A stretch of DNA of 63,978 nt, filler included, from Stramenopiles sp. TOSAG23-3 (lineage: Eukaryota), in NCBI GenBank assembly GCA_900128585.1. It is 5 parts of 5 records of this genome, joined end to end, with 100 filler letters (N's around TTAATTAATTAA, not from the genome) between each part and the next. Parts side by side here need not be neighbours in the genome. Positions count along the whole stretch, not along the records: positions 51,290 to 63,978 come from LT642668.1; 4 more parts are not named here. The stretch is one strand, 5' to 3'. Both the position numbers and the translations under genes were made by a program. Positions 12,835-62,674 of the stretch are shown in pieces (the stretch's first letter is position 1; each line of letters starts with the position of its first letter). The notes beneath the pieces were generated by a model that searched no databases, was not told the DNA's origin, and was given only the letters and a program-made list of their open reading frames with translations.

Positions 12835-13308
12835 AGCGTACTAAAATAAAATATAATCCTATCATTACTTTACACTACTCAATCTTATACTAATCATCAC
12901 TGTGTGAGAGAGCCAGCGAAAAAATGAAGTGGTAAATTTAATTGTAATTTTGTAATAAAAAAAAAGGGGGGGGGGGCACTTCGTAGGTTATATTTAATTA
13001 TATAACTAAACTTAGGACTGGAGAGACGAAATAAGCCTAGATCTTCATAGTCTCTAAACAAAATTTAATATTGTGGCGTATTTTGTCACTTCAGCACTGT
13101 GTGAGCTCACTTATAATCTACACCACTGAAAAAACAAAGAAGATATCGTCTTTCTACTTGAAGTTCAGAGACGAAGGTATTGAAAGACATATGTGTGAGT
13201 GTGTGGAAAAGAGAAAGAAAGGTAGGTTTGGTTGAGGGGTTTTATAAATACAGAAAAGAAAAAGTATCCCACGTATAATAACCATTGGCATATAACGGAT
13301 TTTACAAC

Positions 13309-15399
13309 ATGAAACTAAAAGCAACTGCATTGGCTCTCTGCGTCGCTTCGTCGTCTTTGACGGCAGTAGCAACAAACTCTATCTGCAAAGAACCGATCAC
13401 GTTCTACAACGACTGCGAGTTCAAGGAGAAGAGTTCCGCGGTCAGCATTGACAAGGATAACACCCTGACGACTATTGCGAAGGCACCAAAAGCTGTGAAT
13501 GTCCCTGCTGGATGCAGGGTAACGTTGTTCTCGGCCACGTCTACAATTCACTCAGCAAACAAACCCTCGCATGGAATGTTTATCAAAGGCCCAAAGAAGC
13601 TTTGTGTGGCCAAGCATCACATGGTTCCTGTTGCCCTGGAAATCAAGCACGACACAGACTCCGCCGTGATTGTAAATGATATCGAAACATTGCAAGGCAG
13701 AAACAGCGCACTGCAGGACAAGCTCAATTCCCTCGAGTCGGCGCTGGGCTCGTTGCAAACGCAAGTCGAAAGTGGTGCATTGAGGGGTCCTACTGGAGCC
13801 CAAGGTTTACCAGGAATCGAAGGAAGACAGGGCATCAGAGGTGCCACAGGAAAAGGAGAACCCGGTAAAGATGGAGTGGGAGCTACTGGTAGCCCAGGCC
13901 GCCCTGGCAAAGACGGGAGGGATGGACGCCCGGGGAAAGACGGGATTGGTGCCATTGGAAAGGCAGGACCGAAAGGAGAGCGGGGAGAAACTGGAAGACC
14001 AGGGTTGCGTGGACCAACCGGAATGCAGGGAGCGCAAGGAGAGCAAGGCGCTGCAGGATTAGGGCTTCACTTGAAGATCTTCAAGATTGGCAACTCCTAC
14101 AAGAAAGGCGACTATGTGTTTGTTAAGGGCACCACCCAGGACGTTATGTACGTTGCTGAACGAGACTTTGTTGCGAAGAAAGCTCCTGCCGATGAGTCTG
14201 CAAATTGGGTTTCTTTCAAAGCACCAGCTGGGCCTAAGGGAGCACGCGGCGATAATGGTGCTGCCGGAAAAGATGGGGAAAACGGCGCGCGAGGAGATAA
14301 AGGAGCTCCTGGCACGCCTGGTTCTAATGGAAAAGCCGGCGAAAACGGGAAGAACGGGGAAAACGGAATTGATGGAGCCCCGGGAAAACCAGGCAAAGCC
14401 TCCAAGGGCGAAAAAGGGGACCAGGGTCCCCCTGGAAAGAAAGGTCCGACCGGTCCAGCGGGAAAGGATGCGCCGACGCCCCCGAAGTGCCCAACGTTCA
14501 CGCCTCCACGATGCAAGGAAGGCGAGGACCTTTCGACAAAACCGCATCCGGATATTCCTAATTGTAAATTGGCGTTTTGCAAGCCAGCGCCAAAGCCCGA
14601 ACCGAAGGAACCAGTGCACAAAAAACTTACAACTTGTGGAAAGAAGTGGTCCACAGAGTTGGACTACCCGACCGTACTGAAGTTTGAGTTGATGGGAGCC
14701 GGGGGTTCAGAAGGCGGGGATCGTTCCCAGGGTAACAACGTTGGCGGATCTGGTGCAAAAGTTTCCGGTTCCGTTTACGTTCCAAGTGGAAAGACGGTGG
14801 ACGTTTATGTTGGTTGCCGTGGTACTACTCGCCGTGGCCGCATCGGCGGTGGCGGGGGTGGTAGTTCGGCCATCGTTGTCGATGGGAAGGTCGTCGTTAT
14901 TAGCGGCGGTGGTGGGGGAGGTGCTGGTGTTGGCAGTGCTCCTGGAGGCAATGCCGGCCGAGTTGGTTCAAGTGGTGGACGTGATCAATGCAGGGGCAGC
15001 CATGGAGGAGGAGGTGGCTCACAGACTTCCGGTGGCAACGGTGGGGGCGGCAATAGGGGCAAACCAAATGGGAGAAAAGGAGGCGACGATGGCACTGGTG
15101 GAAATGCTGGCCAAACGAATGGAGCACCGGGCGGATGGGGCTTCAAAAACGGTGGACACTCTGCCAATAACCCGGGAGACGGAGGCGGTGGCGGCGGCGG
15201 CGCTGGTTACCGCGGTGGTGGCGGCGGCGGTACGGGATGCCATGGAAGTGCGGGAGGGGGTGGTTCATCCTTTACAGCCAACAATGTACAAAAAGCCATG
15301 TTCACAGTAGCAAACAATAAAAATGGCAACGGAAAAGCTGATTTAACGTTTGAGCATTTCTTGGAGCTGAGGGACATTCCCCACGTCATGAGATTGTAA
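13309..15399 (+). CDS. Secreted modular collagen-like protein with C-terminal glycine-rich domain
   Basis: Signal peptide MKLKATALALCVASS, a beta/gamma-crystallin-like segment, a coiled coil, two Gly-X-Y blocks split by a CBM5/12-like module, a small Cys module, and a Gly-rich domain (GAGG..GGSGAKVSG..VYVG). Confidence 0.85.
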   Translation: MKLKATALALCVASSSLTAVATNSICKEPITFYNDCEFKEKSSAVSIDKDNTLTTIAKAPKAVNVPAGCRVTLFSATSTIHSANKPSHGMFIKGPKKLCVAKHHMVPVALEIKHDTDSAVIVNDIETLQGRNSALQDKLNSLESALGSLQTQVESGALRGPTGAQGLPGIEGRQGIRGATGKGEPGKDGVGATGSPGRPGKDGRDGRPGKDGIGAIGKAGPKGERGETGRPGLRGPTGMQGAQGEQGAAGLGLHLKIFKIGNSYKKGDYVFVKGTTQDVMYVAERDFVAKKAPADESANWVSFKAPAGPKGARGDNGAAGKDGENGARGDKGAPGTPGSNGKAGENGKNGENGIDGAPGKPGKASKGEKGDQGPPGKKGPTGPAGKDAPTPPKCPTFTPPRCKEGEDLSTKPHPDIPNCKLAFCKPAPKPEPKEPVHKKLTTCGKKWSTELDYPTVLKFELMGAGGSEGGDRSQGNNVGGSGAKVSGSVYVPSGKTVDVYVGCRGTTRRGRIGGGGGGSSAIVVDGKVVVISGGGGGGAGVGSAPGGNAGRVGSSGGRDQCRGSHGGGGGSQTSGGNGGGGNRGKPNGRKGGDDGTGGNAGQTNGAPGGWGFKNGGHSANNPGDGGGGGGGAGYRGGGGGGTGCHGSAGGGGSSFTANNVQKAMFTVANNKNGNGKADLTFEHFLELRDIPHVMRL

Positions 15400-30884: not shown

Positions 30885-33697
30885 TTAGGACGCCCCTTGG
30901 TGCATGATTTCGTGGAGGGCTACTTTCTTTTCCAACTTTTTAATCCTTCTCTGCAACGTTTCTTGAGCTTGCGCCCAATCTGAAGTTCGGTCCCGATGAG
31001 CTTCCCCCGATACGGTGTACGAATTCCTCAAGAATAAGAATTTAACCGCCAGTCCCATAGCAATCGTCCACACCATCAGTGCATTCGTCGTAACTAAATT
31101 CAACGCCACTGTGGTAAACTCGTACCGCTTTAGCACTGTTTCCACCGGTTCGTACATTGACTGAAGATGGTAAAATAGAAAACATATGGGTTAGAAAAGA
31201 ATGGCAGCGAGTTTATTCGGAGTTTACTTACCGTGCTGTTAACGTATGGCCCACATGGTCTAGCACAACTGCACCAGTGGACTGGGTAAGCCTCTGAAAT
31301 CATTATTTCGTTGCCACTAACCATTATAACGCCGCTTGGATTTGCTGCTGCAAATTTCAGGCAATCGGCAGACGCCTGGTATGCTTCAGGGAACAACGTG
31401 TACTCATCGAGCGGGATAGTAGCAATTTGTTTCTCGCACAGTTTGGGCTGGGTTTGGTTTCGCAAAATGGAATGGTTGAGAAAAAGTGACAACCCAATAG
31501 AAAATATATAAAATTTCAAGAAAAAGGCGCCGGCATCTTTCGCCGACCACGGTTTCTTCGGTTTGGATTGCGTTTTTCTCAGCACGAATATATCGAACTT
31601 GAAGTTAATATAGAACAAGAGCAAGGAAAGGATCCCACTGATCGGTAAAAACACGGGAGACATGAGCACCAGCTGCTGAAAGTACAAAAGCCCTATCATT
31701 TTCAGCGCAACGTCGAATTCTGCTTTCTTGAATTTCTTTTTTCTCACTTTCGCCACCAAATATTTGGCAAACGGGACACCGAGCGCTAGTATCTTGCCCA
31801 TGACAAACTCGGTAGCAACTAAACCAAATATCTGGCTCCCTGCCTGATCTGCTCTGCACTGAAAGCTGCCCGGTGTAAATTGTTTTTCCGTGTTCTCTCT
31901 AATCAAGGTTTGCTTCAACCCAAACACTTCCTCGTCCTGGGTGTACATGTACGGGTCTATCAGTTCGGCATAAGAAAACAACTGAATAATAACGTTGAAG
32001 GTTTTCGCCATAAAAATTTTCGTCGTTTTTTGTTTGATAAAATCGCCTTGTGATTCCCATCCCTCTAGCTCGGTCAGTTTTGTGATGACCGCCGGGAGGA
32101 CAGCGTTAATTACAGACACGGCAATTGGCACTATGTCCAGCGGAATTTCTTGGCCGACCAGCGCTGTAATTTGCCCCGAGACCGCTCTACTGTTTGCCGT
32201 CAAGTAAATGATTACACTCCAGCCTGAGACTTGAACAATCATGTAAAGGAGGAACAGGACGAATCTTTTTGCATACAGTATGTATGTATCTCGCTTGCTT
32301 CTTTCTTGGGCGGCCCCCTTGGTTGCATCTTCGTGAAGCTTTACGGTAATGTGCTCGGCTACTTGGTACATCTGGTCGGAAAATGCGGACCGGTCCGTGT
32401 ACGAATGGTCCCAGCCATTCAGTGTCAGCTTTGTCCATTGTTTTGAGTTTCCTGTCACCTGTTCAAAGACCTTTTTTTTTCGATCTTCGGCTACCGTCTT
32501 TTGAATGGTAAACACGAGTAGGATTATCTGGGAGCCGAACAAAACGCCCGTGTACTGTACCGCTTCTTCTTGACTGTAATTGGAAAACAAAGCCCACGAC
32601 GGCACGATGCCTTCAAATTTTGACCATTGGACGGGCTCCATCGTGACAGGCGCTGTCCCGTTCAGAATGTTTTGCACCCCGTACAAGTAGAGGTTCCCTA
32701 CGTGATAAAACATAAACACGCCTTGAATCGCAAAGAGAATCATAGCATTCACGAACAGCCATCGAAAAAAAATAAAATATGCGCCGACGCTATTTCCGTA
32801 TCGGCTTTCTACCATCAGTAAGTCCCTCCCAAATGGTTGGTGCCTTTTCCACCACCGTTTTAAAAGCACGATGAAGCGCTTTATTGGGTTTATGGACTCG
32901 TCGGTGCCAAAATTCAGCAGCTCATCTTCATCCTCCGCAAGCCCAGAAAACATTTTCCGGCGTTCTTCTTCTCTTTTTTGCCTTGCCAGCGCGGCTTGTT
33001 GGGCGGCGTTTGCGTTGCCCCCTGTGGTATTCAAACGTCTTCTCCAGTCATCGCCCCCCTGGCCTGACACCATTTTCGCAACGTCAAGCTCATTTTTCGT
33101 CGATTCTAGTTCATCCTCCAGTTTCTTCTTTGCGGCAAGTGCTTCATTTAACTTATCGCTTAATTTGTCTATCGCCCCCCGGTACTTTCCCGCCTTCTGC
33201 ATCAACCCTATCATTCGTTCTTCGACCTTTGGTGCGAGCGGCGTGCCCCCTGCCCCCTGATATCTTGCAAAATATACTGGCCCTTGCTGCGCCGCCTCAT
33301 CGTCTGAGAATTGTTCGGCGAACTCTATTTTTGCTTCCTTCCTTTTCTTCTTGCTTTCGCCCGGAACTTCACTGAGGACTTCTTCGATTTGCCTGTCTAA
33401 CTGGTGAAGGCTGCGCCTGGCCCTTTCTTCCCCGAACGTCCCGATGTCAAACCCATTGATCTCTGTCGGCACCTCTGTGACATTGTAGTATGGATCATTC
33501 CTCCGTCCAATCCTCGACTCCTCGACAGCTTCTGCCGTTTCGACATATTGATCATCGACTTCCTCTACTTCTATTACATAACTATTGGTGGATGTAGACT
33601 GGGGGCCAAATCCACTGAATCCAGTCCCACCCTCTGGAGCGGCATTTAAACCAGAAAAGTTGGAGAACGGATTGCCCGAATCGCTTCTTCGAAACAT
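30885..33697 (-). CDS. Transmembrane channel-like (TMC) protein; 2 exons (33697-31232, 31160-30885)
   Basis: VESRYGNSVGAYFIFFRWLF, multiple TM helices and CARPCGPY. A phase-0 71-nt intron joins the two ORFs in frame (PYVNST|SMYEPV). Confidence 0.88.
31161..31231 (-). other. Spliceosomal intron in TMC gene
   Basis: GTAAGT donor, CTAAC branch site and TTCAG acceptor; splicing restores the frame. Confidence 0.85.
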
Positions 33698-42388: not shown

Positions 42389-45300
42389 CTACACCAAAAC
42401 CAGCTGCTTCATAGACAGACATTTCAATACCCAGCTGAGGGGCACTTTGCGGCGCCGAAGCATGCTGTCGACTGCCGCATCGTCCTTAATTTTGCTCGAA
42501 TATCCGGTTCCACTTCTGGTTTCCTCACCACCATTATCAGGAGTGACTATATGGGTAATGCCTCTGTCAGTAGGATCGGTCGAAATATTTCCCCCAACCA
42601 TCTCGATATTTACCAAGGTACACGATTCCATCATTTTCAAGTCTTCAAAGAAGAACACAAATTTTGCAAAGAAATACTGGCCAAGAAATGAACCGCTCGT
42701 TCCTCTGTGCAACAAGTCGAAGGCGGTGGGGTCATCGCCCAACGCTTGGTATAGGGAAGTCCATTGTTGCGCATTGCTCGTTCGCTCGTGGGGGATGAAA
42801 ATCCCATCGCTTATCTTTTCATCTTCTCCACAAGGAATGCTTTTTGCGCCGTCCATTTGTGCAAACACTGTCTTCAATTCCTCCGCATTACCCTCGTGGT
42901 AGTATAGATCTCCATAAGCATCTTTGTACAGACGCTCCTTGTCTCTTCTCATGGAAAGCAACCAGTCACGGGGAGAAGCGTATGGATTTATCCACAATGA
43001 CCTCCGCTCCACTTCATCCAACCACGCCAATGTCAGAATGTCGCACTTCCCACCACTTGCAAAGTTTTTTATTTTCGCAGAATCAATCTGGGCCGCAATA
43101 GAGAAGAAATTTTGGGGGCACTGTTCCGGGGGATTTGCTTGAGTTTTTCCTCCGAGGGCGCACACACGATGCGCGACTTCCTTTGCAGCGTTTGCGTTTA
43201 GGGTGGCTTTTGAAATGAACACAATAAACGTTTTGCCGGATAAGGGGGCGTTGGATGGTACGCTTAACATGTCGTGTTCATCTCCATCGAAATTAAGAAT
43301 AGAACTTGAAACTGTCAAACTGGACGGTGGAGTTCGTCCAGCGTCTGCCGCTGGCAATGACTGGCTCATTTCTCCCTGGCTATTGCTATGGCTTAGCTTT
43401 GTGTGACGCCGAGACAACTCCGGAGTCGTCATTGCATCGTACCAATTTTTGTCCAGCCGCTTTGTTTTTACACGAGGAAACCTAACAGTTATGCCAGCAT
43501 TGAACTGATCTGTATTGTGCAATTCTGCCCCACAAATCTCAACCACGAATGATTTTGTTGGTTGAAACCACACGTCTGGAACGTCATCTTTTTTCTTCGG
43601 AATCCACCCAGAAAAGTGAGGGGGGATAATTGGTTTCCCAGATGCTGCATGCTCGGTTTTGAAGGTGGCTTTCTTGAGCAACTGGTTCCAATCTTGGAGC
43701 TCGCTCACGGAATACCCAGTACCAACTTTGCAAACTGTGTGAAAAAACTGTCCGTCCTCAAGCGAATCATTACACACTGACGTGTTGATCCTTGTACCTA
43801 GCAAAAAGTGAGAAATAAGAGTCGACCTTCTTCTTCCACTAGCATAGTATCCCCCTAGTACAAGTAAGTCCAAGGAGTCGGACAGCTCGCCCAAGTATTC
43901 TGGTTTGAGCTTAACCCAGTAACCCTCTGAAGTTTCAGTTAACATGTGCGTTAGTTGAAATGAAAACAAAATTATTAAATTGATCGCTTGTACTTACTTT
44001 TTCGGGACGACTCGCCTAGGATGTAAGGTGATCCAAAATTTTTCAATACCAGCCCCTCTTTTTTTTCGAGATGAACACTCTCCATGCATTCCAATATTAT
44101 ATCCTGCCACGAATTGGGTTGACTCGACAATAGCGTCTTGTATGGGACAGTGTAAAATACATTTGGAATGGGCCGTATTAGCTTGCTCAACAAATCTTTT
44201 CTCGTTGCTAATGCCTCGTTCATTACATTTCCATTAATGTGAGATTTTCCCCCGTCATGCTGCACGTAAAGAATGTCAAAAACAACGTAGCATGGCCACA
44301 TTTCTGACATGTCATTCGTCAAAACTCCATTTCTCTGTATTTGTTTATCTTCCGCTTTGGACTTATTTTCCGTAGATTTTCTTTTGTGTTCAATGAATGA
44401 AGACAAGAAGCCAAACTCGTTAAATCGCTGGTTTCTGTCGTCCCATAGCAGCATTTCACCGTCCAGTATGCATTCTTTGCAGGACACGTTCTTTATTGCA
44501 GGCCCTCCCATATACTTCAAATACCTATTCGTATAATCAATGCAATTTCGAGTGAAAAGTTTGACAGCATCGCCCTTTTTGTGCAGTAAGATCCTATCAC
44601 CATCTAATTTATCTTCGATGCATAAGCTAGCGTTTCCATTATACAGCGGGGTGGTTGCTGTTTTCTTCCTTCTCTTCAAAGATGATTTGCACAAGGAGAA
44701 CCAGTTCCATACTTCTTTCCATGAATTAAGCCGTTTTGCTAACATGGGGCTGCACCCCTGAAAAACCCTCAAACTAGCACAAAACCGTTCGTTCGGATTC
44801 CGCAGCTTTGAGCAAACCAATTTGAGGTTTCTGCAATGATCGTAAAAGCTCGGCGCATCTGGATGAAATTTGCTGAAAAAGCGTTCTTTTCCCAGTCCCA
44901 TCTTCATGTCTTTGAATATAATACGACAAATCCATTTATGTTCCCTCGCACTGCAAGATTTTATAAACCTGCTTATTACTTGTTGCTTTTCTGCTTCTGA
45001 ATGGGCCGCTGCGAGTTTGTCTAACTCTGCATTAACATCGCCGACGGTAAAGCCGTCACGGGACCTTTTCCTGCATCGGGGGGCTAATACGTCTTCTAGG
45101 ATAGTAGAAAAATCTCCCACTACAACACCTAACCCGCTTGAAGCATGCAGCGTTGGATCTCGGAAGTTCTTCAAACGTTTTTCGGGAAGCCCACTAAGAC
45201 CTAATTCTTTTATGTACAAGGTGGCCAATTTCTTAACTTTTAGTCCATAATTGTAGCGTGATTTATCAGCGTCAGGAATAACCAATCTTATAATACTGTA

Positions 45301-45498
45301 AGCACTCTCGTTCTTTTCATGCAGTTCCTGGTACAATTCAGGGCTTAAAATGAACCCAAGTTTTTCTTCAACTATACCTGTCTTTGAAATCTTCTCGAGC
45401 TTATCGGTCAGATCAGCGAACAAGAGAGAATCGCAGTATGTGTGCGGCGTGCGAAGGCACTCCTCCCTTTCGATATCCTCAAGATCTGCAATATCCAT
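42389..45498 (-). CDS. LIG4: DNA ligase IV; 2 exons (45498-43998, 43926-42389)
   Basis: DNA-binding domain, EDKLDGDR (KxDG), ILDGEM, EGLVLK, WVKLKPEY, RFPR and two BRCT-like C-terminal regions. A 71-nt intron restores the frame. Confidence 0.92.
43927..43997 (-). other. Spliceosomal intron in LIG4
   Basis: GTAAGT donor, CTAAC branch site and TTCAG acceptor; phase 1. Confidence 0.85.
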
Positions 45499-51570: not shown

Positions 51571-54500
51571 TTAAACTTTCTCTTCGCCATTATTACTATT
51601 ATTATTGGCGCTGTCACCAGCAGTGTTGATCAGGTTTTCTCTGTACCTCAACACTCTGTACGTTTCCATGATGAGTTTGGCCGCATAGACATGTTCCGTC
51701 GTAAATCCAGTGCGCATTTTTGAGGTGTGACCTACCGAAAATCGGGTCAAAAACTTTACCAATTGCTTGTGCTGATCAGGCAGCGTGAGGTCTTCAATCT
51801 GGTAACCTCGGCTGCGATGAAGCATGTCCTTCGCCATGGCGGTTGCAACGTCCGTGTAACATGCGTAGTTCCCGGCGTAGTGGGGAAGTCCGAGGGAGAG
51901 GACGGCATTGCCTAGGGCATATTGGTCCTTGCGGATGTGCTCTGGGAACCCAAATGGTTCGGGAACTTTTTTCAGCAATTCTATTAGTTGGTCTTTCCTG
52001 ATGTAAAGGGTTGCGTGGGGATCAAACAATTGCCACCTGCTGGTGAATTCCATAAAGTTTTGGGCCGACAACACAGAACTTTCCCCGTTTGTGATTTCAC
52101 TGAAACCGTCGCAAATGATACCAATGAACATGTTCAGCATGATAAACGTCACCAACAGTGTAAACGACACAAAAAAAGGAAACGCGACAGGAGTTCCACA
52201 ACCGTCTACTGGGACGCAACCTTCTGCATTCCCATTAAAGGCGCAAATGCTCGGGTCATAAGCAGGGTCTTCGTTGCAATTCTCCGACGCCGAAGACAGG
52301 TCCCACATGATCGTGTTCCACGCCTCTCCGGTCGAGCATCGTATCAATGTCATCATTGCATTTCCCAGGGTCTGAAAGTTCGCGTGGTCGTCCAACAGCC
52401 CTACTAGTTTCGCTTTCGCAAATATCTGCACACCCATTATCGCGTATATAAAAAGGAACAGGAACAGGAGACTGCCAACGTTCGCCAAGCCTGGGAGCGT
52501 GAGCAGCAGCGTGTTAAACAGCATCCTCAAGCTCTTTGCGCGTTTTACCAAGCGTACGATTCGGCAAATGCGGAAGGTACGGATTATCATTGCAATCATG
52601 GTCACATTTCCGCCCGCGGTGCCGCCGGTGCTCGTCCATTGAAAAAATAGCCCCACCAGTGTGCCCACAACGATGGTAAAGTCAAAGATGTTCCACAAGT
52701 TGTAGACGTGCCGAACTTCTGGGACAGTCGGCTCAGATTCTTTCTCGTAGTGATCCTTCTGAATTTTTTTCTTGAACCCTTTGTCGTTATGGATCGCGTT
52801 CAGCTCCGACATTGGGATTTTGGCAAATGATTTTCTTCGTTTGATTGTTTTATGATGGTGATGCGTTTCGGGTGGTGATTTTTTCCCATCATTTGTTGTC
52901 TTTTTCTCTTCTTTGTGGTACAATGTCTTCAAGCTTGCCAACTTTTTCAGCTGCAGCATTGCAGAAATTTTCAAGTTTTTCAGAGGCGGTCGAACCCCAT
53001 GAACGGGCTGCACCTTGTGCTGTGTGATCGATGGTATTCCTCCAAAATAAACATCGTCGCAGAAGTACCCTGTTCCAAGCGCTAGGAGTTTAAGCACCGC
53101 CTCGACCGTGAAAATGAAGGCAAAGACGTAATTACAAACCTGCAAGAATATCACCCACGTTTCTGGGGCACCGATGTGGACGAGCGCCATCGTGATGGTG
53201 TTGACGCCAATGCAGCCCATTATGAATTCGTCAAAGGATGGGTTTTGTGTTATCTCCCAGCATTTCTTTCTGATGCCGGAGTCCGGGGGCGGAACTTTCG
53301 GGAGCGGGAGGGTTTTGCTTATGACTTTAATGGACCGCACCCATTCCAACTGAGCCTCCGTTAGTAGTCCGTTTTCCCCCAGTTCATTTTTAATCCGTTC
53401 AAAGTTGTCCAGCAGCACACCAACGAACAGGTTCATTACAAAGAAACATCCGACCAGCATAAACCCAAGGTAAAAGAGGACGGGGCCTGTGACGGTGCTA
53501 TTTTCAATTGGCTGCATGCCAATCCCTGTTGCGTCGACCGAATTGTACATCACGTCCACCCAACCCTCCGTCGTGGAAATCTCCAAAAGCGTTAACAGCC
53601 CGTTGCCAACATTGTCAAACGTTTGTGGGATCGTGGGGCCCCATTCCCCGCACATCCATTCGCAGACCAGCTGTGATGTTGCGGCTGCTGCAGTCGTTGT
53701 GTTCATGTACGAATATGTGGCGTTTGAACATGCCCACCCTTGCTCCAATGCAGTCAGTTCGAAGTACGGCTTTGGGTACTGCAGCAAATGCACTTGCTCG
53801 GCTGAAAACCCCTCAAACAGGGCGCCTTGACATGCGTAAAACCGGCCCTTGAAATTGTTGACCCCTACAATCGCAAAAATTAGAAAGATAAGAATGCAGA
53901 CCAGGACTACGTTTACCATTTCTGGCATTGCTGCCAGCATGGCTTGCACGACCAATTTCATCCCCGGAGCACGGGAAATCATGCGCAAAGGCCGGAGGGC
54001 GCGAAAGGTGCGCAGCGATTTCAACCATTTGTACTTGGACGCGTTTCCACTTTTGCTGAGGACCGATATAATTACAATAAGAAAGTCTAGCATATTCCAC
54101 GAGTTTCGTAGGTACGAACCCCGGTGCAAGACGAACCCGCTAGCAACTATTTTGAGCATCATTTCCAAAAAGAAAATAATTGTTAAAATCCAGTCTAACA
54201 CCTCGAGCACTCGGGAGAACGTGTTGCCGCCCTCAAGCAATGGCGAGTCGACGGCAAGGGCCAGGCTACTGATGATGATCATGACGAGGATCGTGTTGTC
54301 AAATAATGACGAGCGCACAAAGTCTGACAACTTTATTCGAAACGGGGAACCTGCGCCAAACATGTACAGTGAAGTCGAATAAAGGCTGACCATCCGTAGG
54401 GTGGCGCCGTCTTCGAGGCCCAGCTCCAAAGGATGCTCGTCGTCTCTCAATTCTCGAGCTTTCCCTTCGAGAAAAAGGCTCTGGACGTTAGGTGGAATGT

Positions 54501-57363
54501 TTGTTGCAGACTCGATTTTGCCTTTAATCCTTCGCACCGTGGCCCCCGTGTCGCTGACGTTCACACGAATTGTCAACGTTTGCCCAGACATCATCTTTAT
54601 GAGAAAGCTAGGCTTGGGTTTCAAAGAAATATCTCTGCACATTTTTAGCCGTTGGTCGAACTTCCGTAGGAGCCTCAACTTGGTCCATTTATTCATTTTC
54701 TTCTTTTCCGGCACGGCCCCGTCAATTCCAACTGCGGATTTCAAGGAATTGATGACATTTTTTCCCATCTCTTTCTCGGCCACCCCTATGGTGCTACCGC
54801 GCCTCTTCTTGTCTATGATGCGACAGCAAAATACTTTGAAAGACTTCAGCAGCCGACCGCAAGCCCCCAATTTCTTTTCTTTCACCTTGATCCCCAGGCG
54901 CACAAGTTCATCTTCCTCGTCGTCGTCTATGTTGGTATTCTCAAAATTACCAAGCAAAATGGCCAGGAACAAGTTCAAAACGATAAAGTTGCCGAGGACG
55001 ACAAGGGTTATAAAGTATGCGGCCCCTCCCGCTCCAGCAACACGCATCCCATCGTACATAATGGTGTTCCAATTCTCCCCCGTCAGGACTTGAAACACGG
55101 TCGCCACCGCCCAAATAAACGTGTCAAAATTTGCCCTGGGGACCTGCCCGCTCTCGTACCCGTTTTCCAACATGCTCAACGGTTCGTTTGTTTCCGGGTC
55201 AAACCGAAATTTGTTTGCGAAGAGCTGCATGCCGATTAGAGCAAAAATATAAATAAAAAGAAACAAGACAACGGTAAAGTTGGCAATATCTACGAGGGTC
55301 CTGGCAATAGTCTGCAACAGTTTTCGCAACGACACCCAGGAGCGGGCCAATTTAAAGACGCGGAAGAGTCGAAACGACCGCAGCGCGGAGACAGCAGATC
55401 CGTCACTTTCATCTTGCCAAGGGGGGGCAAAGATCAACTCGACCGTGCCAGAAATAACTATGAACGCATCGAACACATTGAAAAAGTCTTTGATGTACTC
55501 TCTAATCCCCACACCAAGCAGTTTGATGACCATTTCCATTGCAAAAACGATCGACAACGAGAAATTGACCCACTCCATAGTTTGTTCTTCCTGTTTGTCA
55601 AGAGGAAACCGGTCCAAGGACAGAATTACAGTGTTTGCAACGATCATGAATACGATAAATATGTTGAAAAATGAATTTGTCGCAATTTTGTAGCACACTT
55701 TTATGCAGCATATAGGGCTATTCTGGTCGTCGGGCCAGAGGTACTTGTAGCAACGTTTCAATGCAGACATTACGGACGTTTTTGTCAACGTCGTCAGCCG
55801 CTTGTTCAGCTTGCCAAGGGTCGATAAGCGTCGGATTTTCCCGTGCTTCTTTATCATCTCCATCTCCACCCGTGACTTTCGTTGGTTTTCTTCCTCTTGC
55901 GTGCGATCAAACTGCTCCCAAAGGACCGCCAGCGTCAGGTTTAGGAGAAAAAATGAACCAAACAAGATGAGGAACGTAAAGTACACGGCTGCAAATACCC
56001 CATTGTGACCATCCATTAGCTGGTACATGACGTCTACCCAGCCTTCCATGGTGATGCATTGGAAAATTGTTACAAAGGCGTTTATAAAGTTGTCAAAGTT
56101 GGTGAAACCGAAGTTCCTCCCTTCCACAAAATCGGCTTGTCGCATGGCCCTGGGGTCGCGGAATCTAGGGTTTCCAAACGAGTCGTACGCCGAGCCACAC
56201 GCCAGGTGGTTGGGGCACTCGTAGTCTCCGCTGCTATCCGGGAGACTGCAGACCCGCTCGTCGCTGGCATCCGATGGCCAGAAGCACGGTTGGCTTTCTA
56301 TCCATGGCGAATCTTTCATATCGACCCAGTTGGGATTTTCAACGGGTATAGGGACGCCAGGTCGATCGCTCATGTTGCACCTGTACATGCCTGGATTCAA
56401 CAGCACCCGTTCCAGAAACGGCACGCCAATGTCGGCTGACAACGGCATGAGGTTATCAGGGGGCATGACAATGGGAAACGGTGTCAGGCGGCAACGGTTG
56501 TGCTGTATCCCACTCCATATTTGAACCCCCAAAATTCCAAACATGAAAAACATAAACATCAGCAGGGCGACGACGTTGAGCAGCTGTGGTATTGCAGACA
56601 GCAACGAGACGATCAAGACTTTCATCCCCGGGACAATAGTCAGGCTCCGCAGGGGCCGAAGGACTCGAATGGCCCTAAACGCACTAACGTTAGGGAAATC
56701 AAAAAGTGTCAAAACGCCGGCGACGACGACGATAAAATCCAACCAGTTCCACCCATTGCGCAAGTACGCACCTTTTCCGGAAACAAATCCCATCGCCACA
56801 ATCTTCAGGGCGCACTCGAAGAAAAATATCCATGTAAAAAAGGGCTCACTCTGCTCTACGACGGCGTTCCTCCACGACCCCTCTGCCGTCGGCTCCAGCG
56901 TCGCCGGGTCGACCACCGAGTAATCCTGCAGTGCAAGAATAATAGAGTTTAGCACAATCATTAACAGGATGGTGTTGTCAAAGCGGGGATGGACGGCCAG
57001 CCATATAGCATACTGCCGAACCTTGCTGGATTCGTCGAACACACAACAGGACACAGGGGCGAACAAAAGCTCCTTGCCATGCACTTTGAAGTTGGCGGGC
57101 AGCTCCTCCGAACGAATCATGGCATCCATCGAAGACATCGTTTCCGGCTCGTGGTCTGCCGCCGCAGCAGCAGCATGGTTCTGCAACGACGATTTCCCTT
57201 CAGACAACGGATGAACGGCTGCCTTTGACATTCCCCGCTTCGACGAACTTTTCAATATGTTTGACGCTTCCGCAAACCCGCTCGACTTCTTCTTCTCTCC
57301 CCCCCCACCATACTTATCCTTGTCGCCCTGCCGTTTAAGCGATAGTATTTTAGAAAGGTCCAT
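51571..57363 (-). CDS. Four-domain voltage-gated Ca2+ channel alpha subunit (EEEE filter) with internal ubiquitin-like domain
   Basis: Four 6-TM repeats with R-x-x-R S4 helices. Pore motifs TMEGW, TGENW, TTEGW and TGEAW. EF-hand-like and IQ-like C-terminus. One 1930-aa ORF. Confidence 0.95.
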   Translation of the reverse strand: MDLSKILSLKRQGDKDKYGGGGEKKKSSGFAEASNILKSSSKRGMSKAAVHPLSEGKSSLQNHAAAAAADHEPETMSSMDAMIRSEELPANFKVHGKELLFAPVSCCVFDESSKVRQYAIWLAVHPRFDNTILLMIVLNSIILALQDYSVVDPATLEPTAEGSWRNAVVEQSEPFFTWIFFFECALKIVAMGFVSGKGAYLRNGWNWLDFIVVVAGVLTLFDFPNVSAFRAIRVLRPLRSLTIVPGMKVLIVSLLSAIPQLLNVVALLMFMFFMFGILGVQIWSGIQHNRCRLTPFPIVMPPDNLMPLSADIGVPFLERVLLNPGMYRCNMSDRPGVPIPVENPNWVDMKDSPWIESQPCFWPSDASDERVCSLPDSSGDYECPNHLACGSAYDSFGNPRFRDPRAMRQADFVEGRNFGFTNFDNFINAFVTIFQCITMEGWVDVMYQLMDGHNGVFAAVYFTFLILFGSFFLLNLTLAVLWEQFDRTQEEENQRKSRVEMEMIKKHGKIRRLSTLGKLNKRLTTLTKTSVMSALKRCYKYLWPDDQNSPICCIKVCYKIATNSFFNIFIVFMIVANTVILSLDRFPLDKQEEQTMEWVNFSLSIVFAMEMVIKLLGVGIREYIKDFFNVFDAFIVISGTVELIFAPPWQDESDGSAVSALRSFRLFRVFKLARSWVSLRKLLQTIARTLVDIANFTVVLFLFIYIFALIGMQLFANKFRFDPETNEPLSMLENGYESGQVPRANFDTFIWAVATVFQVLTGENWNTIMYDGMRVAGAGGAAYFITLVVLGNFIVLNLFLAILLGNFENTNIDDDEEDELVRLGIKVKEKKLGACGRLLKSFKVFCCRIIDKKRRGSTIGVAEKEMGKNVINSLKSAVGIDGAVPEKKKMNKWTKLRLLRKFDQRLKMCRDISLKPKPSFLIKMMSGQTLTIRVNVSDTGATVRRIKGKIESATNIPPNVQSLFLEGKARELRDDEHPLELGLEDGATLRMVSLYSTSLYMFGAGSPFRIKLSDFVRSSLFDNTILVMIIISSLALAVDSPLLEGGNTFSRVLEVLDWILTIIFFLEMMLKIVASGFVLHRGSYLRNSWNMLDFLIVIISVLSKSGNASKYKWLKSLRTFRALRPLRMISRAPGMKLVVQAMLAAMPEMVNVVLVCILIFLIFAIVGVNNFKGRFYACQGALFEGFSAEQVHLLQYPKPYFELTALEQGWACSNATYSYMNTTTAAAATSQLVCEWMCGEWGPTIPQTFDNVGNGLLTLLEISTTEGWVDVMYNSVDATGIGMQPIENSTVTGPVLFYLGFMLVGCFFVMNLFVGVLLDNFERIKNELGENGLLTEAQLEWVRSIKVISKTLPLPKVPPPDSGIRKKCWEITQNPSFDEFIMGCIGVNTITMALVHIGAPETWVIFLQVCNYVFAFIFTVEAVLKLLALGTGYFCDDVYFGGIPSITQHKVQPVHGVRPPLKNLKISAMLQLKKLASLKTLYHKEEKKTTNDGKKSPPETHHHHKTIKRRKSFAKIPMSELNAIHNDKGFKKKIQKDHYEKESEPTVPEVRHVYNLWNIFDFTIVVGTLVGLFFQWTSTGGTAGGNVTMIAMIIRTFRICRIVRLVKRAKSLRMLFNTLLLTLPGLANVGSLLFLFLFIYAIMGVQIFAKAKLVGLLDDHANFQTLGNAMMTLIRCSTGEAWNTIMWDLSSASENCNEDPAYDPSICAFNGNAEGCVPVDGCGTPVAFPFFVSFTLLVTFIMLNMFIGIICDGFSEITNGESSVLSAQNFMEFTSRWQLFDPHATLYIRKDQLIELLKKVPEPFGFPEHIRKDQYALGNAVLSLGLPHYAGNYACYTDVATAMAKDMLHRSRGYQIEDLTLPDQHKQLVKFLTRFSVGHTSKMRTGFTTEHVYAAKLIMETYRVLRYRENLINTAGDSANNNSNNGEEKV

Positions 57364-58081: not shown

Positions 58082-61000
58082 TTACAGCGGCTCCAAGGTT
58101 GCTACATAAACCCATGCGGAGATGACGCCACATGGGTAACCAATGCATTTCACACCAAAGGCGAACTTTGTCGATGGGATCTGCGTTTCGTGTATGTCAA
58201 GCCCCTTTATTTGTTCCAGGATCGATTTGATGTCCGTGAACGACGAGTTAAATGGGAACCCATACAGTTTGCTGGTCTTCTGGTACTTAGCGAACATGCG
58301 CGTGTGCTCGTAATCGGAAAACGGGATGTCTGACTCGAGGCCGCACCTTTCGTACTCCATTGCCAGCAGTGTTTGCTGCAACTCTCGCTCCAGGACGGTT
58401 TGCTGTGTCATAGGCTTGTTGCCGCGCCATTCACGAAACTCTTCCTTGATTGTTTGGTGGATCTGGCGCTCCAAACGTTCCAGGAACTCCGTGTCTGGTG
58501 GGGTGTACTCTAGATTTGGAATCTGGCAAGTTTCCCCGTGCGGTAATGGGTATTTGGCGCTGAAAAATGGTCTCCAGCTATTTGGGTCGTTCAAGTTGAA
58601 ATTCATCTCGTACGGAAAGTCTGACTCTTGAATATTTGCGTAGATATTGTCCTGGCTGGCGATAGTGCCAACACGAAGAGGACAGCCGTGGTCATCATGC
58701 GCGTACCCTTCGCCGGTGCTTGCGTTCCAAAACACAATGTCCCGTTCGGGGTCGGTATTGCTCACGCGCATGACGTACTTCGTTTTCCCTTCTGGTATTC
58801 CCGTCCCGATCACCAAATATGATTTGTAGTCGTTCCCGTCGATGTAATTGAAGTAGTTGCACAGCAAAACTGCGTGCTCTTCCCAGTCCCCTGCGCAGAT
58901 CTGAAGAAAGTCGTGAGAGTAATTCCACGCCTCCGCTTGCCCTTGGTTGATTTGAAAGTCCTCCAAAAAGGGTATCAAGGACACGAAACGAACAACCTGC
59001 GACACGGTGTTCATGCGTTGCCCTGTCAGGCCGATCGGAGGCGCTTGGGGGCATAGGAATTTCGTGATAAGCAGCATGTCCCCTTCTAGCGTTGGCGCGA
59101 GCACCATCACCTCGCGGTCCTTAAACATTTTCTTCCCCTTCATTCTCGAGATGAATAACCTCGCTTGCTTTTGCGTCGCGTTGTCCTCGCCGCCTCGTAT
59201 TTCGGGAACGTCGTCGTGCGGAAGAACCAATGGCGTCTCCAACGTCGCCATGAGGTGCAGGGTCGTGGCATTTGCTGCTCGGTCTTTCACCGTGCCCAAT
59301 GCCGACGTATCTCGCCCCGTCCCTTCGTTCTGCACGGTCTGGTAGCCCAATTTGATGAGCGGCGTGTTGACACGAAAGTGCCCGTGGACACGCTGTTGCA
59401 AATAAATCGTAGTAAATGGGATACTGAAGGATCCAAGGTACCGCTTCGAAACAATCGTGGTCAGCTTGCGCTTGTCCTTTCCAACCCCCCGTTGCTGGCT
59501 CTCCGTCAGGTCGAACAACGTTACCGTGACGTCGTCCCGCTCTAGTAACAAGTTATCTGGTGTCCATGAGTTCGCGCCAGCGTTCTTATTGGGCTGAAAC
59601 GGCAAGTAAATTGCTTCCCCCCAGCTTGGCGTGGTCCCTTGCTGCGAGGTCGTCGCCACCGAATGTCCTTGGAAGGAGCACTCCACCATAATGTTCGGTT
59701 GGAGTCGATCGACCTTGTCCTCGCTGTCGTTTTGCGGCTCTTCGCGCTGGCGCCGTCTTGGGCTAGGCGACCTGCGGCTCGGGCTCCCGTCCCGCCTGCC
59801 ACCCACGCTGCTGCTGTTATCCCTTCGGGTGGGAATGTTGTTGGCACGGACGACTTGCAGAAACAAACGGCATGTTCGAACAATTGCTTCGGGCTTCCTC
59901 GTCTGCGGTTGTGGTCGTAGTCGCCGTCGTGGGGCGAACAGGCCAGCCAGAAACGAAAGGTCCAGCTTGAACTCGGGCATAAGGCCTTGCTTCACAAACG
60001 CAGAGGCTTCATGGCTATGCCTCCTGCGAACCACCCCAGACGATGCACCTTGAATCTTTTCTACAAACCCTTGAATTCGCCGTTGCCTTTGCAGGATGAT
60101 TTGCTCGTCAAAGTCGGCCCCTTCGATGTCATCCTCTTGAGTGTCCGCCTTATCGGAAGGTTTGAGCAACGAACGCCAGTGGTGGTCTCTTTTAATTTCT
60201 GCATCCGAGAATGGAATCGGTCCGCTTCCAGAGAACATGTGGGGGACCGCGGACCGCATTTTCAAAAGGTTTTCCCGCGCCGACGATTTGAATAACCGCC
60301 GATCGGACGTAGAAAATTCAACCCCGTGCTGCTTTCGGGAGAGTCGAAACATCAAGTTTTTTTTGGTTTCCGTGTCCGACGCATCCGTTTTTTTGCCGAG
60401 CACATCCTCTAAGCTTGGGTCATTCGGATCATGCCATGCATTGCCTTTCAACACCTTCGATAATTTTCCCGATGTACCAAGGCCCAAGGGGCTGCCCGCA
60501 ATAATCTCGTCGCCTATCAGCCGCGATTTAGCGTGTCGGAAGTCCTTTTCAGGAAGCAACGATATTAACTCCCCTGTCTCGGTCGGCGTCTTCGCCCCTA
60601 GGGACGCAAGCCAGTTCACGGTGCAGCAGACCGCCCCGGACGTGTAATGTTCAACAAAATCGGTGTTTCGCTTGTCCTCGTTCATTAGTGCGGTGCCGAC
60701 GGACTCTGCCACAAACTTACCCTCTTTGGGGCGGGCATTGCGCGCGCCCGGGCCTTGCACCCCTACGCTCTTGTCTTTCCTAAAAAGGGTGGGCTGCTCG
60801 GCGGAAAATTGGTGGTAAGAATCGACCGGGGTAAGCGCGGTGGCACTAACGTTGTCGCTATCGCCCCCTGGGATCGATATCGGAATGGTTGCGATCTTTT
60901 TGTTCATGCCCGGCAGCATGCTTTTCTTCCACAGTTCCATGTGTATTCTGTGGGGCCGCCGCGTCACTTGAATAGTGAAGGATTGGTTGAAGTTGATGTG

Positions 61001-62674
61001 GAACAGGGGCCAGGTTAACATTCGGTCCTTCGTTCGCTCTATAAACTGGTCGTTAACAAACAGTTTTAAAAAGTAGGTTTCCGCGTTGATCTGGCGCCGC
61101 CTTTGGGACTCCGACTTTTCGACTTTTTCATCGTTGGTTTTCCCTAACAGAACTTCCTCGCCGTCGATGTTTCCCTGCGAAATCCTAAATATATTGTCCA
61201 CTTTGCTTTGCCTCGCTTTGATTTCTTCCCTCACCTCGTCGTACACGCGGTCCAAATTGCCCTTGATCGTCTCCAAATCGTATGCCTGGGCCTGAAACTT
61301 CTCCGGCATAAAGTCAACAATTTCTCGCACCAGTTTGATCATTTTTTCCACTACCTTGTACTTTTGGGACAACGAGGCTATCTGGTGGGCTTGCAACATC
61401 GACGGCGTGCTCTGGTAGCGCTGCTTCTTTCGCTGCAACTTCAACGCCGACCAAGCGGCGTAGACGTTCTTCCGGTACTGGGCCCCCGCCCGCTTGTTGG
61501 AGATTGCCTCGGACAGAAAGTTGATCTGCTGCATGGTTAAGTTCACTAGCTCGTCGCCGTGTTCGTTGTCTTTCAATCCGTGCTCCCTAACGTCTTCGAA
61601 CAAATTTTTCACGGAACCGTAAAAGCTTCCGAGGCGGTTCAAAGAGTAAGAAAGGGAGTCGGCACTCATATGTCGCCAGTACTGGTGATATTCCGCAAGC
61701 AATGCTGCGTTGAAAAAGTCCTCAATATCGAACCGTGGGTGTTTGGAAAACATCATTTTCTTCACACCGACTTCTAAACACACCGGCGCCCGGCTCCGTA
61801 GGCGCCCATTGCTGTCCACCTGGGTCCGCCGGCGGACGGCCCGGTACTGTGGGTTTTTTATTTCGTCCTCTTCAGGCAGCGTTGGGCCCCGCCTTGTGGG
61901 CGCTAACGGGTTCGGCAGCAGACGAACATTGCCCTCAAAAAACTGTTCCTCGATGGGGTCCCCTGTCCGCACGGAAGTCAGCAACGCTTTTGATGGGTTG
62001 TCCTGTAGGGAATCCAGGTTTGCACGAAGGACGTCTTTGTCGACGGTATCCCCGGGTTTTAAATTTCTCAGGTTCCGGTCGGCATCAGCGGTTCGTTTCA
62101 ACCTATCGCTCACGGCCAGTACGTTTACCGGGGTCGCGTTGACGAGTTTCGGCGCAAAGAACCCTTGCTGTTGCATCACCTCCCTTCCTTTTCCAAAATC
62201 GGTCGATGCTTGGGAAGCGCTCCGCTTGGGCACAACAACCTCTTTTATCGCTTCCGTGCTTGGCAGCACGGTGAATTGAAACGCTTTTTGGGCCATTTTG
62301 GCGACCGTCATCTCTTTTTGGAACTTGATCTTTCTGCCGTTTGCGGCACGGGGCGTCTCCACATCGGAGTACTCGGAGTCGGAGGTGTCGCTTGGCCGAG
62401 GGCTGTTCGACCTGGACCGGGGGCTGTTCGACCTGGACCTGGGGGATTGGTCCGTGTCCAACTTGAAGCCTTTCGCGTTTCCAAACCGAGAATTCTTCTT
62501 CTTTATCCGCGTCCCACCGTCTTCGGTTTCGTCTGATCCATTCTCAGCTTGCATTTTCTTCCGTGCCACCTTCCTCGCTTTCGCACGTTGCAAAGCGCTC
62601 ATCGGCTTCTTCTTTTCTCTATCCCTTCCCCGGCGGCTACGCACGCTTCGTGGTTCGTCGTCTTCGTCCGACAT
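58082..62674 (-). CDS. CC2D2A: Coiled-coil and C2 domain-containing protein 2A (MKS6), ciliary transition zone
   Basis: C2 domain (LQVVRANNIPTR..RYLGSFSIPFTTIY), RFVSLIPF, AGDWEEHAVLLCNYF, GFPFN and terminal SAWVYVA. Confidence 0.9.
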   Translation of the reverse strand: MSDEDDEPRSVRSRRGRDREKKKPMSALQRAKARKVARKKMQAENGSDETEDGGTRIKKKNSRFGNAKGFKLDTDQSPRSRSNSPRSRSNSPRPSDTSDSEYSDVETPRAANGRKIKFQKEMTVAKMAQKAFQFTVLPSTEAIKEVVVPKRSASQASTDFGKGREVMQQQGFFAPKLVNATPVNVLAVSDRLKRTADADRNLRNLKPGDTVDKDVLRANLDSLQDNPSKALLTSVRTGDPIEEQFFEGNVRLLPNPLAPTRRGPTLPEEDEIKNPQYRAVRRRTQVDSNGRLRSRAPVCLEVGVKKMMFSKHPRFDIEDFFNAALLAEYHQYWRHMSADSLSYSLNRLGSFYGSVKNLFEDVREHGLKDNEHGDELVNLTMQQINFLSEAISNKRAGAQYRKNVYAAWSALKLQRKKQRYQSTPSMLQAHQIASLSQKYKVVEKMIKLVREIVDFMPEKFQAQAYDLETIKGNLDRVYDEVREEIKARQSKVDNIFRISQGNIDGEEVLLGKTNDEKVEKSESQRRRQINAETYFLKLFVNDQFIERTKDRMLTWPLFHINFNQSFTIQVTRRPHRIHMELWKKSMLPGMNKKIATIPISIPGGDSDNVSATALTPVDSYHQFSAEQPTLFRKDKSVGVQGPGARNARPKEGKFVAESVGTALMNEDKRNTDFVEHYTSGAVCCTVNWLASLGAKTPTETGELISLLPEKDFRHAKSRLIGDEIIAGSPLGLGTSGKLSKVLKGNAWHDPNDPSLEDVLGKKTDASDTETKKNLMFRLSRKQHGVEFSTSDRRLFKSSARENLLKMRSAVPHMFSGSGPIPFSDAEIKRDHHWRSLLKPSDKADTQEDDIEGADFDEQIILQRQRRIQGFVEKIQGASSGVVRRRHSHEASAFVKQGLMPEFKLDLSFLAGLFAPRRRLRPQPQTRKPEAIVRTCRLFLQVVRANNIPTRRDNSSSVGGRRDGSPSRRSPSPRRRQREEPQNDSEDKVDRLQPNIMVECSFQGHSVATTSQQGTTPSWGEAIYLPFQPNKNAGANSWTPDNLLLERDDVTVTLFDLTESQQRGVGKDKRKLTTIVSKRYLGSFSIPFTTIYLQQRVHGHFRVNTPLIKLGYQTVQNEGTGRDTSALGTVKDRAANATTLHLMATLETPLVLPHDDVPEIRGGEDNATQKQARLFISRMKGKKMFKDREVMVLAPTLEGDMLLITKFLCPQAPPIGLTGQRMNTVSQVVRFVSLIPFLEDFQINQGQAEAWNYSHDFLQICAGDWEEHAVLLCNYFNYIDGNDYKSYLVIGTGIPEGKTKYVMRVSNTDPERDIVFWNASTGEGYAHDDHGCPLRVGTIASQDNIYANIQESDFPYEMNFNLNDPNSWRPFFSAKYPLPHGETCQIPNLEYTPPDTEFLERLERQIHQTIKEEFREWRGNKPMTQQTVLERELQQTLLAMEYERCGLESDIPFSDYEHTRMFAKYQKTSKLYGFPFNSSFTDIKSILEQIKGLDIHETQIPSTKFAFGVKCIGYPCGVISAWVYVATLEPL

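Follow-up and report, generated by a model that had tools for sequence, protein, structure and literature searches.

In animal Cav1 and Cav2 channels, the loop connecting domains II and III is an interaction hub (it holds the synprint site and the excitation-contraction coupling region), and the II-III loops of voltage-gated calcium and sodium channels in general are known as disordered hubs. To our knowledge, the animal Cav II-III loops hold short linear or disordered motifs, none of them with a folded ubiquitin-like domain, and ubiquitin is known to us to regulate voltage-gated calcium and sodium channels only by reversible attachment and removal, through ligases and deubiquitinases. Integral (type-2) ubiquitin-like (UBL) domains are found in Rad23, ubiquilin, parkin, HERP and TMUB1; they are usually N-terminal, sit on soluble or single- to few-pass proteins, and bind the proteasome or partners with ubiquitin-interacting motifs (UIMs). 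A structured element in the II-III linker has been described for NALCN: a linker helix, the CTD-interacting helix (CIH), binds the channel’s own C-terminal domain (PMC7712781), and a linker helix helps to seal the gate (PMC7672056). Here we describe a four-domain channel gene of Stramenopiles sp. TOSAG23-3 (GCA_900128585.1) that encodes a UBL domain within its II-III linker. The gene lies at 51571-57363 and the UBL at 54388-54612, both on the minus strand of the window, by which we mean the whole 63,978-nucleotide stretch of DNA that was analysed; all features of the channel gene given below are on the same strand.

Read on the minus strand, positions 54388-54612 encode exactly the 75 residues in which the sequence-only reading had recognised ubiquitin by eye, residues 918-992 of the channel; a plus-strand reading of the same positions runs into stops and was discarded. 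Scanned alone, the 75-residue piece matches the Pfam ubiquitin family PF00240 with 47.6 bits (E 1.4e-12, curated cut-off 25.4), and in a scan of the whole protein the match covers residues 921-992 with 39.8 bits (E 3.9e-10, against the same cut-off of 25.4). A phmmer search of the PDB aligns residues 4-73 of the piece with residues 4-68 of ubiquitin (28.6 bits, E about 1e-5), the alignment showing two inserts as compared to ubiquitin, one of three residues that precedes helix 1 and one of two residues that follows strand 3. The AlphaFold2 (AF2) model, built from a 10-sequence alignment (predicted local distance difference score, pLDDT, 84.1; predicted template-modelling score, pTM, 0.75), contains the elements E5-9, E15-19, H29-40, E47-51 and E74-79, that is, the strand-strand-helix-strand-strand order of a beta-grasp. 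Foldseek returned at least 500 PDB matches for this model, the top ones all being ubiquitin or ubiquitin variants (target template-modelling (TM) score 0.86-0.90, root-mean-square deviation (rmsd) 1.5-1.6 A over 74-77 columns, ~30% identity). With Pfam above threshold and phmmer, AF2 and Foldseek in agreement, we confirm that 54388-54612 encodes a complete ubiquitin-fold domain in a four-domain channel.

The channel gene itself is a single uninterrupted open reading frame (ORF) of 1930 aa, the stop codon being included in its coordinates, and it requires no intron. Its Ion_trans repeats are detected by Pfam with E 2e-227, split into 5 stretches of which the best spans residues 564-811, and all four repeats of the solved Cav3.2 match, which places the protein among the voltage-gated cation channels with four domains, in the Cav/Nav/NALCN superfamily. 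Arginine or lysine at every third position is legible in the translated S4 segments. The selectivity position of the pore loops determines Ca2+ selectivity, four glutamates making a calcium-channel type filter. All four pore loops of our protein carry T-x-E-x-W (E440, E763, E1266 and E1680), invariant in the three orthologues (our protein and the two introduced below), and the pore is thus predicted to be of the calcium-selective (EEEE) type. As judged by homology, the gene product forms the pore of a voltage-gated channel that has four domains and is Cav-like. Two orthologues of the same architecture, P0003 (1966 aa, 68% identical) and P0004 (1887 aa, 65% identical), are colinear with it over the whole length; where pairs of identities are given below, they refer to P0003 and P0004, in this order. 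The closest named relatives, among the best 120 of 1311 listed, are oomycete, brown-algal, raphidophyte and diatom channels at about 35-47% identity. From these stramenopile relatives, the source would be a marine protist of stramenopile-like affinity.

The UBL is joined to domain III with hardly any intervening sequence. Residue V992, the equivalent of ubiquitin V70, is followed only four residues later by domain III homology: alignments to domain III of the solved Cav3.2, Cav3.3, Cav1.1 and Nav chains begin at residues 996-998. The position claimed by the sequence-only reading, in frame in the II-III linker and immediately before domain III, is thereby borne out, and the UBL is welded to the pre-S1 segment rather than placed on a flexible loop. 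The connector SLYS (residues 993-996, 54376-54387), which leads from the final strand of the UBL to domain III, is invariant in the three orthologues, and a [SD][LIV][YF][GS] connector with the same spacing to domain III is present in all ten UBL channels described below.

No Gly-Gly follows the last UBL strand in the translation (...RMV-SLYS-TSLYMF), in keeping with the original observation, and a regular-expression (regex) search found no RGG anywhere in the three orthologues. Conjugatable modifiers such as ubiquitin, NEDD8 and SUMO have a C-terminal Gly-Gly exposed by processing; the domain described here does not. Since the last strand passes into SLYS and domain III instead, it is an integral UBL and not a modifier. 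The nearest sequence relatives of the domain are ubiquitin itself and the polyubiquitins, which could suggest a processed precursor, cleaved after the UBL as in the ubiquitin-ribosomal fusions so as to free a modifier or to halve the channel. We give this possibility next to no credence: neither Gly-Gly nor RGG is found at the domain end in any of the 10 sequences, and the end of the UBL is at the same time the start of the conserved pre-S1 segment.

The UBL is not an assembly artefact. For the stretch 53800-55200, at least half of the sampled words are present in 14 of the 24 sequencing runs listed; the rows holding it come from 14 studies, and three of them may be the source itself. We aligned three RNA runs and one DNA run to the channel gene and detected no joint, indel or loose end on it in any of the four. 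The DNA run, X4, is an independent metagenome; its 614-base contig at 54274-54887 matches with 0 differences and covers the entire UBL together with both flanks. Identical full-length proteins are called on two other contigs, of 28,452 and 10,745 bases. On the RNA side, a 272-base contig of the oligo-dT run X15 (54262-54533, no joint, 0 differences) starts halfway through the UBL and reaches IIIS1, and runs X16 and X17 add six more small contigs within the ORF, all RNA contigs having a depth of 2-3 and coming from libraries that may contain DNA. With contig sets of such depth, the absence of RNA cover elsewhere is uninformative. For the check by RNA and read mapping suggested with the sequence-only reading, the outcome is DNA across the whole UBL and RNA across the junction of UBL and domain III, the first third of the UBL having no RNA contig.

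That gap in RNA cover is one of two observations that would fit an artefact, whether through chimeric assembly or because the segment is an intron or is removed by alternative splicing and so missing from the mature protein. The other is that the genome does have small spliceosomal introns: in the ATP-dependent DNA ligase gene (42389-45498, minus strand) two ORFs are parted by a 71-nt AT-rich GTAAGT...CAG intron at 43927-43997, and its excision restores the ligase frame. Even so, we consider such an origin of the segment highly improbable, given that the same contiguous DNA recurs in independent metagenomes, that identical proteins are called on other contigs, that the segment is in frame and conserved at the protein level in the orthologues, and that the RNA contig is colinear from mid-UBL to domain III with no joints in the four runs.

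Conservation along the channel sets the UBL apart from the linker in front of it. With 77% and 62% identity to its counterparts in the orthologues, the UBL is kept like the transmembrane domains (66-78%), while the adjacent linker part is only 13-18% identical. As judged by this comparison, the UBL is evidently under purifying selection. In order along the protein, domain I (about residues 120-485, 55909-57006, pore glutamate E440, delimited on the translation) is 75% and 69% identical, and the I-II linker, with 32% and 25% identity, has no block common outside the subfamily. Domain II (residues 561-812, 54928-55683, pore glutamate E763), which contains the best Pfam Ion_trans stretch, is 78% and 75% identical. 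It is followed after IIS6 by an acidic/basic block seen in this subfamily only (residues 813-840, 54844-54927; 68% and 54%), by the variable, gapped part of the II-III linker (residues 841-885, 54709-54843; 13% and 18%) and, directly before the UBL, by a basic amphipathic stretch found in the three orthologues only (residues 886-917, 54613-54708; 69% and 72%), which could be a calmodulin-binding helix or a helix binding the C-terminal domain like the CIH of NALCN. Domain III (residues 997-1321, 53401-54375, pore glutamate E1266), placed by homology to the solved Cav and Nav chains, is 73% and 66% identical.

These figures bear on the possibility that the domain is a neutral passenger, a captured ubiquitin unit tolerated without function. 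II-III linkers are long, variable and tolerant of insertions; in the relatives, their measured lengths lie between about 40 and more than 1000 residues. A passenger would nonetheless hardly be kept at 77% and 62% identity next to a linker at 13-18%, nor persist at one and the same junction in three subfamilies that are deeply separated (see below), and we regard this explanation as very unlikely.

The rest of the channel consists of domain IV (residues 1373-1755, 52099-53247, pore glutamate E1680, delimited on the translation) and a C-terminal cytoplasmic domain (residues 1756-1930, 51574-52098). Between S2 and S3, domain IV has an insert of ~120 aa (residues 1435-1555, 52699-53061; 44% and 40% identity), unusual for a voltage-sensor loop, with an invariant RRKS site at residues 1509-1512; the insert is confined to this subfamily and is lacking in every other channel examined. 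In the C-terminal domain, regex searches alone picked out an IQ-like motif (residues 1898-1910, about 51634-51672), present in all three orthologues, and an LPxY motif (residues 1826-1829, about 51880-51888), PY-like and a possible WW-domain site, which is likewise kept in the three; the C-terminal block with LPxY is also found in channels without a UBL. GPHH scores 23.3 bits in the C-terminal domain, under the Pfam cut-off of 26.8, and no search was made for the beta-subunit site motif; on these sequence features, the channel is not filed with the animal Cav1/Cav2 group.

How common is the combination of Ion_trans repeats and a UBL? Among the best 120 of the 1311 relatives (E <= 1e-10), precomputed PF00240 matches occur in only 3 channels. 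A search with residues 872-1121 in a library of 1.84 billion representatives gave, among the matches listed, a whole-length match only to the window’s own cluster; the others covered domain III alone, except for five polyubiquitin-like proteins, whose match is to the UBL portion. A hidden Markov model (HMM) of the three UBLs extended the set, with matches at the corresponding position that were weak for P0028 and P0029 (domain E 4e-4 and 0.019) and very weak for P0072, P0093, P0100 and P0053 (E 0.4-3.5). After seeding with the weak matches, UBLs were found in 10 of 249 distinct channels, with nothing else below E = 2. Three subfamilies can be told apart among them: a (the window channel, P0003 and P0004), b (P0028 and P0029, with PDZ and EF-hand domains as well) and c (P0053, P0070, P0072, P0093 and P0100). 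The architecture is not confined to the window channel and its orthologues: the domain recurs, undetected by Pfam, in other subfamilies. Since 7 of the 10 carriers are invisible at the Pfam threshold, architecture surveys based on Pfam undercount UBL channels.

The divergent members are recognised by several lines of evidence. Pfam ubiquitin is sub-threshold in P0028 (14.7 bits), P0029 (17.0 bits) and P0093 (12.7 bits), and gives no match at E <= 1 in P0072, P0100, P0053 or P0070. A profile of subfamily c only, compared with the PDB, matches designed ubiquitin variants over the full length (E 3e-6 to 7e-5), natural ubiquitin not being within E <= 1. In hhalign, subfamily c aligns with a at 51% probability (E 1.5e-4) and b with c at 89% probability (E 2e-6). 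AF2 predicts a beta-grasp for the P0100 segment with pLDDT 89.0, only 1 of the 5 models being confident and the others scoring 41-46; the confident model superimposes on ubiquitin with a target TM score of 0.83-0.87 and an rmsd of 1.3-1.9 A. A search of longer proteins with the profile of all 10 UBLs, in which 8000 candidates of 196-2000 residues were scored and which is not an exhaustive census, recovered seven of the carriers (P0100, P0072, P0093, P0053, P0070, P0001 and P0003), two new fragments (P0277 and P0278) and a pair of UBL proteins of generic type; P0004 escaped it, and P0028 and P0029 exceed its length limit. Locus searches added no further carrier. With the channel protein as query, 287 pattern matches yielded 2 loci, of which L001 matches domain III only and L002 is a chance match on a high-GC, bacterial-looking contig; alignment A2 offered no stretch conserved enough for such a search.

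Whether the ten UBL channels go back to one event was addressed by phylogeny. A FastTree tree of 102 rows requires 3 changes of the UBL label. On 42 rows and 1188 columns, the quick IQ-TREE tree under a site-heterogeneous model also has 3 changes, only 1 of which is forced by well-supported branches, and the one under LG+G4 has 2. When the ten UBL channels are held together, the LG+G4 tree reaches a log-likelihood 7.69 above that of the free quick tree (p-AU 0.6), although this approximately unbiased (AU) test was run under LG+G4, the ten-channel group was defined after viewing a tree, and long stems may attract. A single origin of the UBL channels is therefore not rejected by these trees, nor is it shown.

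What might the UBL do? Since there is no Gly-Gly and the last strand reaches the pre-S1 segment after four residues, the domain can be neither released nor conjugated. We picture it as a former ubiquitin unit that may have been turned into a permanent internal domain of the channel; given the four-residue fusion, the beta-grasp would sit below voltage sensor III as a rigid knob on the cytoplasmic side. The reading we tentatively favour, with a conviction that falls a little short of even, is that the UBL is a fixed protein-protein docking surface that sets the trafficking, turnover or regulation of the channel, the binding of partners being inferred. The sequence-only reading had proposed the proteasome or p97, trafficking or ciliary-targeting proteins as the partners that might dock. 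Precedents for structured elements in this linker are the NALCN helices and the PDZ or EF-hand domains of other protist channels. Suggestive in this respect is the recognition patch of ubiquitin, L8/I44/V70. Its equivalents in the window channel are M925, F964 and V992 (alignment A2 and the phmmer alignment), and those in the two orthologues are M/Y/V and M/Y/T (A2). As the patch is hydrophobic in subfamily a, the likeliest clients would be proteins with ubiquitin-binding domains, for example endocytic or sorting adaptors, and the channel would bear a built-in mimic of a mono-ubiquitin tag.

Several observations weigh against the docking-surface reading. In subfamilies b and c, the position of L8 is occupied by Q or M, that of I44 by R/K/T and that of V70 by S/V/N/R; with the patch replaced by charged or polar residues there, canonical binding to ubiquitin receptors would hardly be a function shared by all UBL channels. 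The columns invariant in the ten UBLs (G13, T28, I36, Q47, L49 and G68 of A2) belong, by our reading, to the structural core of ubiquitin and not to its surface. A regex search found no UIM-like motif in the channel. The RNA support for the segment is thin (depth 2-3, possibly DNA), and the N-terminal junction of the UBL, 54534-54612, is in no RNA contig. Finally, the four-residue tether would suit an intramolecular or gating role too.

Such a role is the principal alternative: the UBL could be an intramolecular structural or gating module that packs on the IIS6 extension, the III-IV linker or the C-terminal EF-hand-like domain and so tunes voltage sensor III or the gate, with no outside partner recruited. 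The four-residue tether to domain III is kept in all three subfamilies, and across these only core residues are invariant, the recognition patch being lost in b and c; both points are what an internal module would lead one to expect. In subfamily a, the UBL is immediately preceded by the conserved basic stretch, and in NALCN, II-III-linker elements bind the C-terminal domain and seal the gate (PMC7712781, PMC7672056). Against this reading, no cytoplasmic block is common to all UBL channels across the three subfamilies and absent elsewhere: the pre-UBL stretch, the post-S6 block and the domain IV insert are restricted to subfamily a, and the distal C-terminal block also occurs in channels without a UBL. 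On balance, we hold a purely intramolecular role to be possible but somewhat unlikely.

The docking surface and the gating module could also be successive states of one lineage. There may be one ancient clade of UBL channels, in which the captured ubiquitin would serve as an enzyme-independent mono-ubiquitin tag read by the sorting machinery for residence in the plasma or ciliary membrane (the CC2D2A-like neighbour described below points to a ciliated organism), the patch-less subfamilies having re-used the domain for gating of voltage sensor III. In its entirety this scenario is speculative and rather unlikely. Engineered in-frame fusions of ubiquitin have been used to drive receptor sorting; were the scenario true, the UBL channels would be their natural counterpart.

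The window is gene-dense, with a patchy G+C content (0.27-0.61 per 2 kb). The next gene upstream of the channel (58082-62674, minus strand) is a 1530-aa ORF encoding a CC2D2A-like protein, with the CC2D2A N-terminal C2 domain and a CEP76 peptidase-like domain. CC2D2A is a ciliary transition-zone family, and the source organism is thus presumably flagellated, as judged from this neighbour. Further away, an 855-aa ORF (31130-33697, minus strand) has a TMC domain match of 31.3 bits and is a candidate mechanosensitive-channel-like protein, and a 704-aa ORF (13285-15399, plus strand) contains collagen triple-helix repeats (61.8 bits).

We found no report of a UBL domain in a four-domain channel in the searchable full-text literature, subscription-only papers and supplements being outside the scope of the search, and the word ‘ubiquitin’ has 0 occurrences in three surveys of protist four-domain channels (PMC5824947, PMC11085791 and PMC6259924). 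This agrees with the sequence-only reading, which knew of no integral UBL in any four-domain channel characterised so far. The combination of channel and ubiquitin is visible in precomputed Pfam tables, so databases ‘know’ the architecture, with no paper found that describes it. A folded ubiquitin-type domain hard-wired in the pore subunit points to an undescribed mode of channel control, and uncultured marine protists, widespread in ocean metagenomes, have it in three subfamilies of their channels. The arrangement also lends itself to a compact experimental construct, in which one channel is compared with a version of itself that lacks the UBL.

Compared with other four-domain channels, the window channel shares with animal Cav1 and Cav2 the four Ion_trans repeats, the pore-loop glutamates, the charged S4 segments and a cytoplasmic II-III linker, and its domain III matches the solved Cav chains with E about 1e-76 to 1e-93; unlike them, it has a folded UBL in the II-III linker and no GPHH above threshold. 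Folded domains in this linker are seen in relatives as well. P0028 and P0029 combine a PDZ domain (26.1 bits in P0028, against a cut-off of 23.2) with the divergent UBL, and P0229 has an EF-hand pair (44.9 bits, residues 704-758), a domain different from the UBL. In P0267 the linker holds a sub-threshold DEP domain (21.5 bits). Domain capture thus seems to favour the II-III linker as a hot spot. NALCN is likewise a four-domain channel with a structured II-III linker element; there, however, the elements are single helices near IIS6 or in mid-linker, whereas the window channel has a 75-residue beta-grasp fused to the start of domain III.

As for the UBL itself, it resembles ubiquitin and polyubiquitin in sequence (~30% identity), in the order of its secondary structure, in fold (rmsd about 1.5 A) and, in subfamily a, in the hydrophobic residues at the L8/I44/V70 positions, but it has two inserts, lacks the Gly-Gly tail and is not a free modifier. 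With Rad23, ubiquilin, parkin, HERP and TMUB1 it shares a ubiquitin fold that cannot be conjugated, forms part of a larger protein and has no processed Gly-Gly end; in those proteins, the fold acts as a docking surface. Unlike the UBLs of the Rad23 type, that of the window channel is internal: in a channel of 24 helices, it is flanked by two membrane domains of six helices each and is held to the second of them by a four-residue tether.

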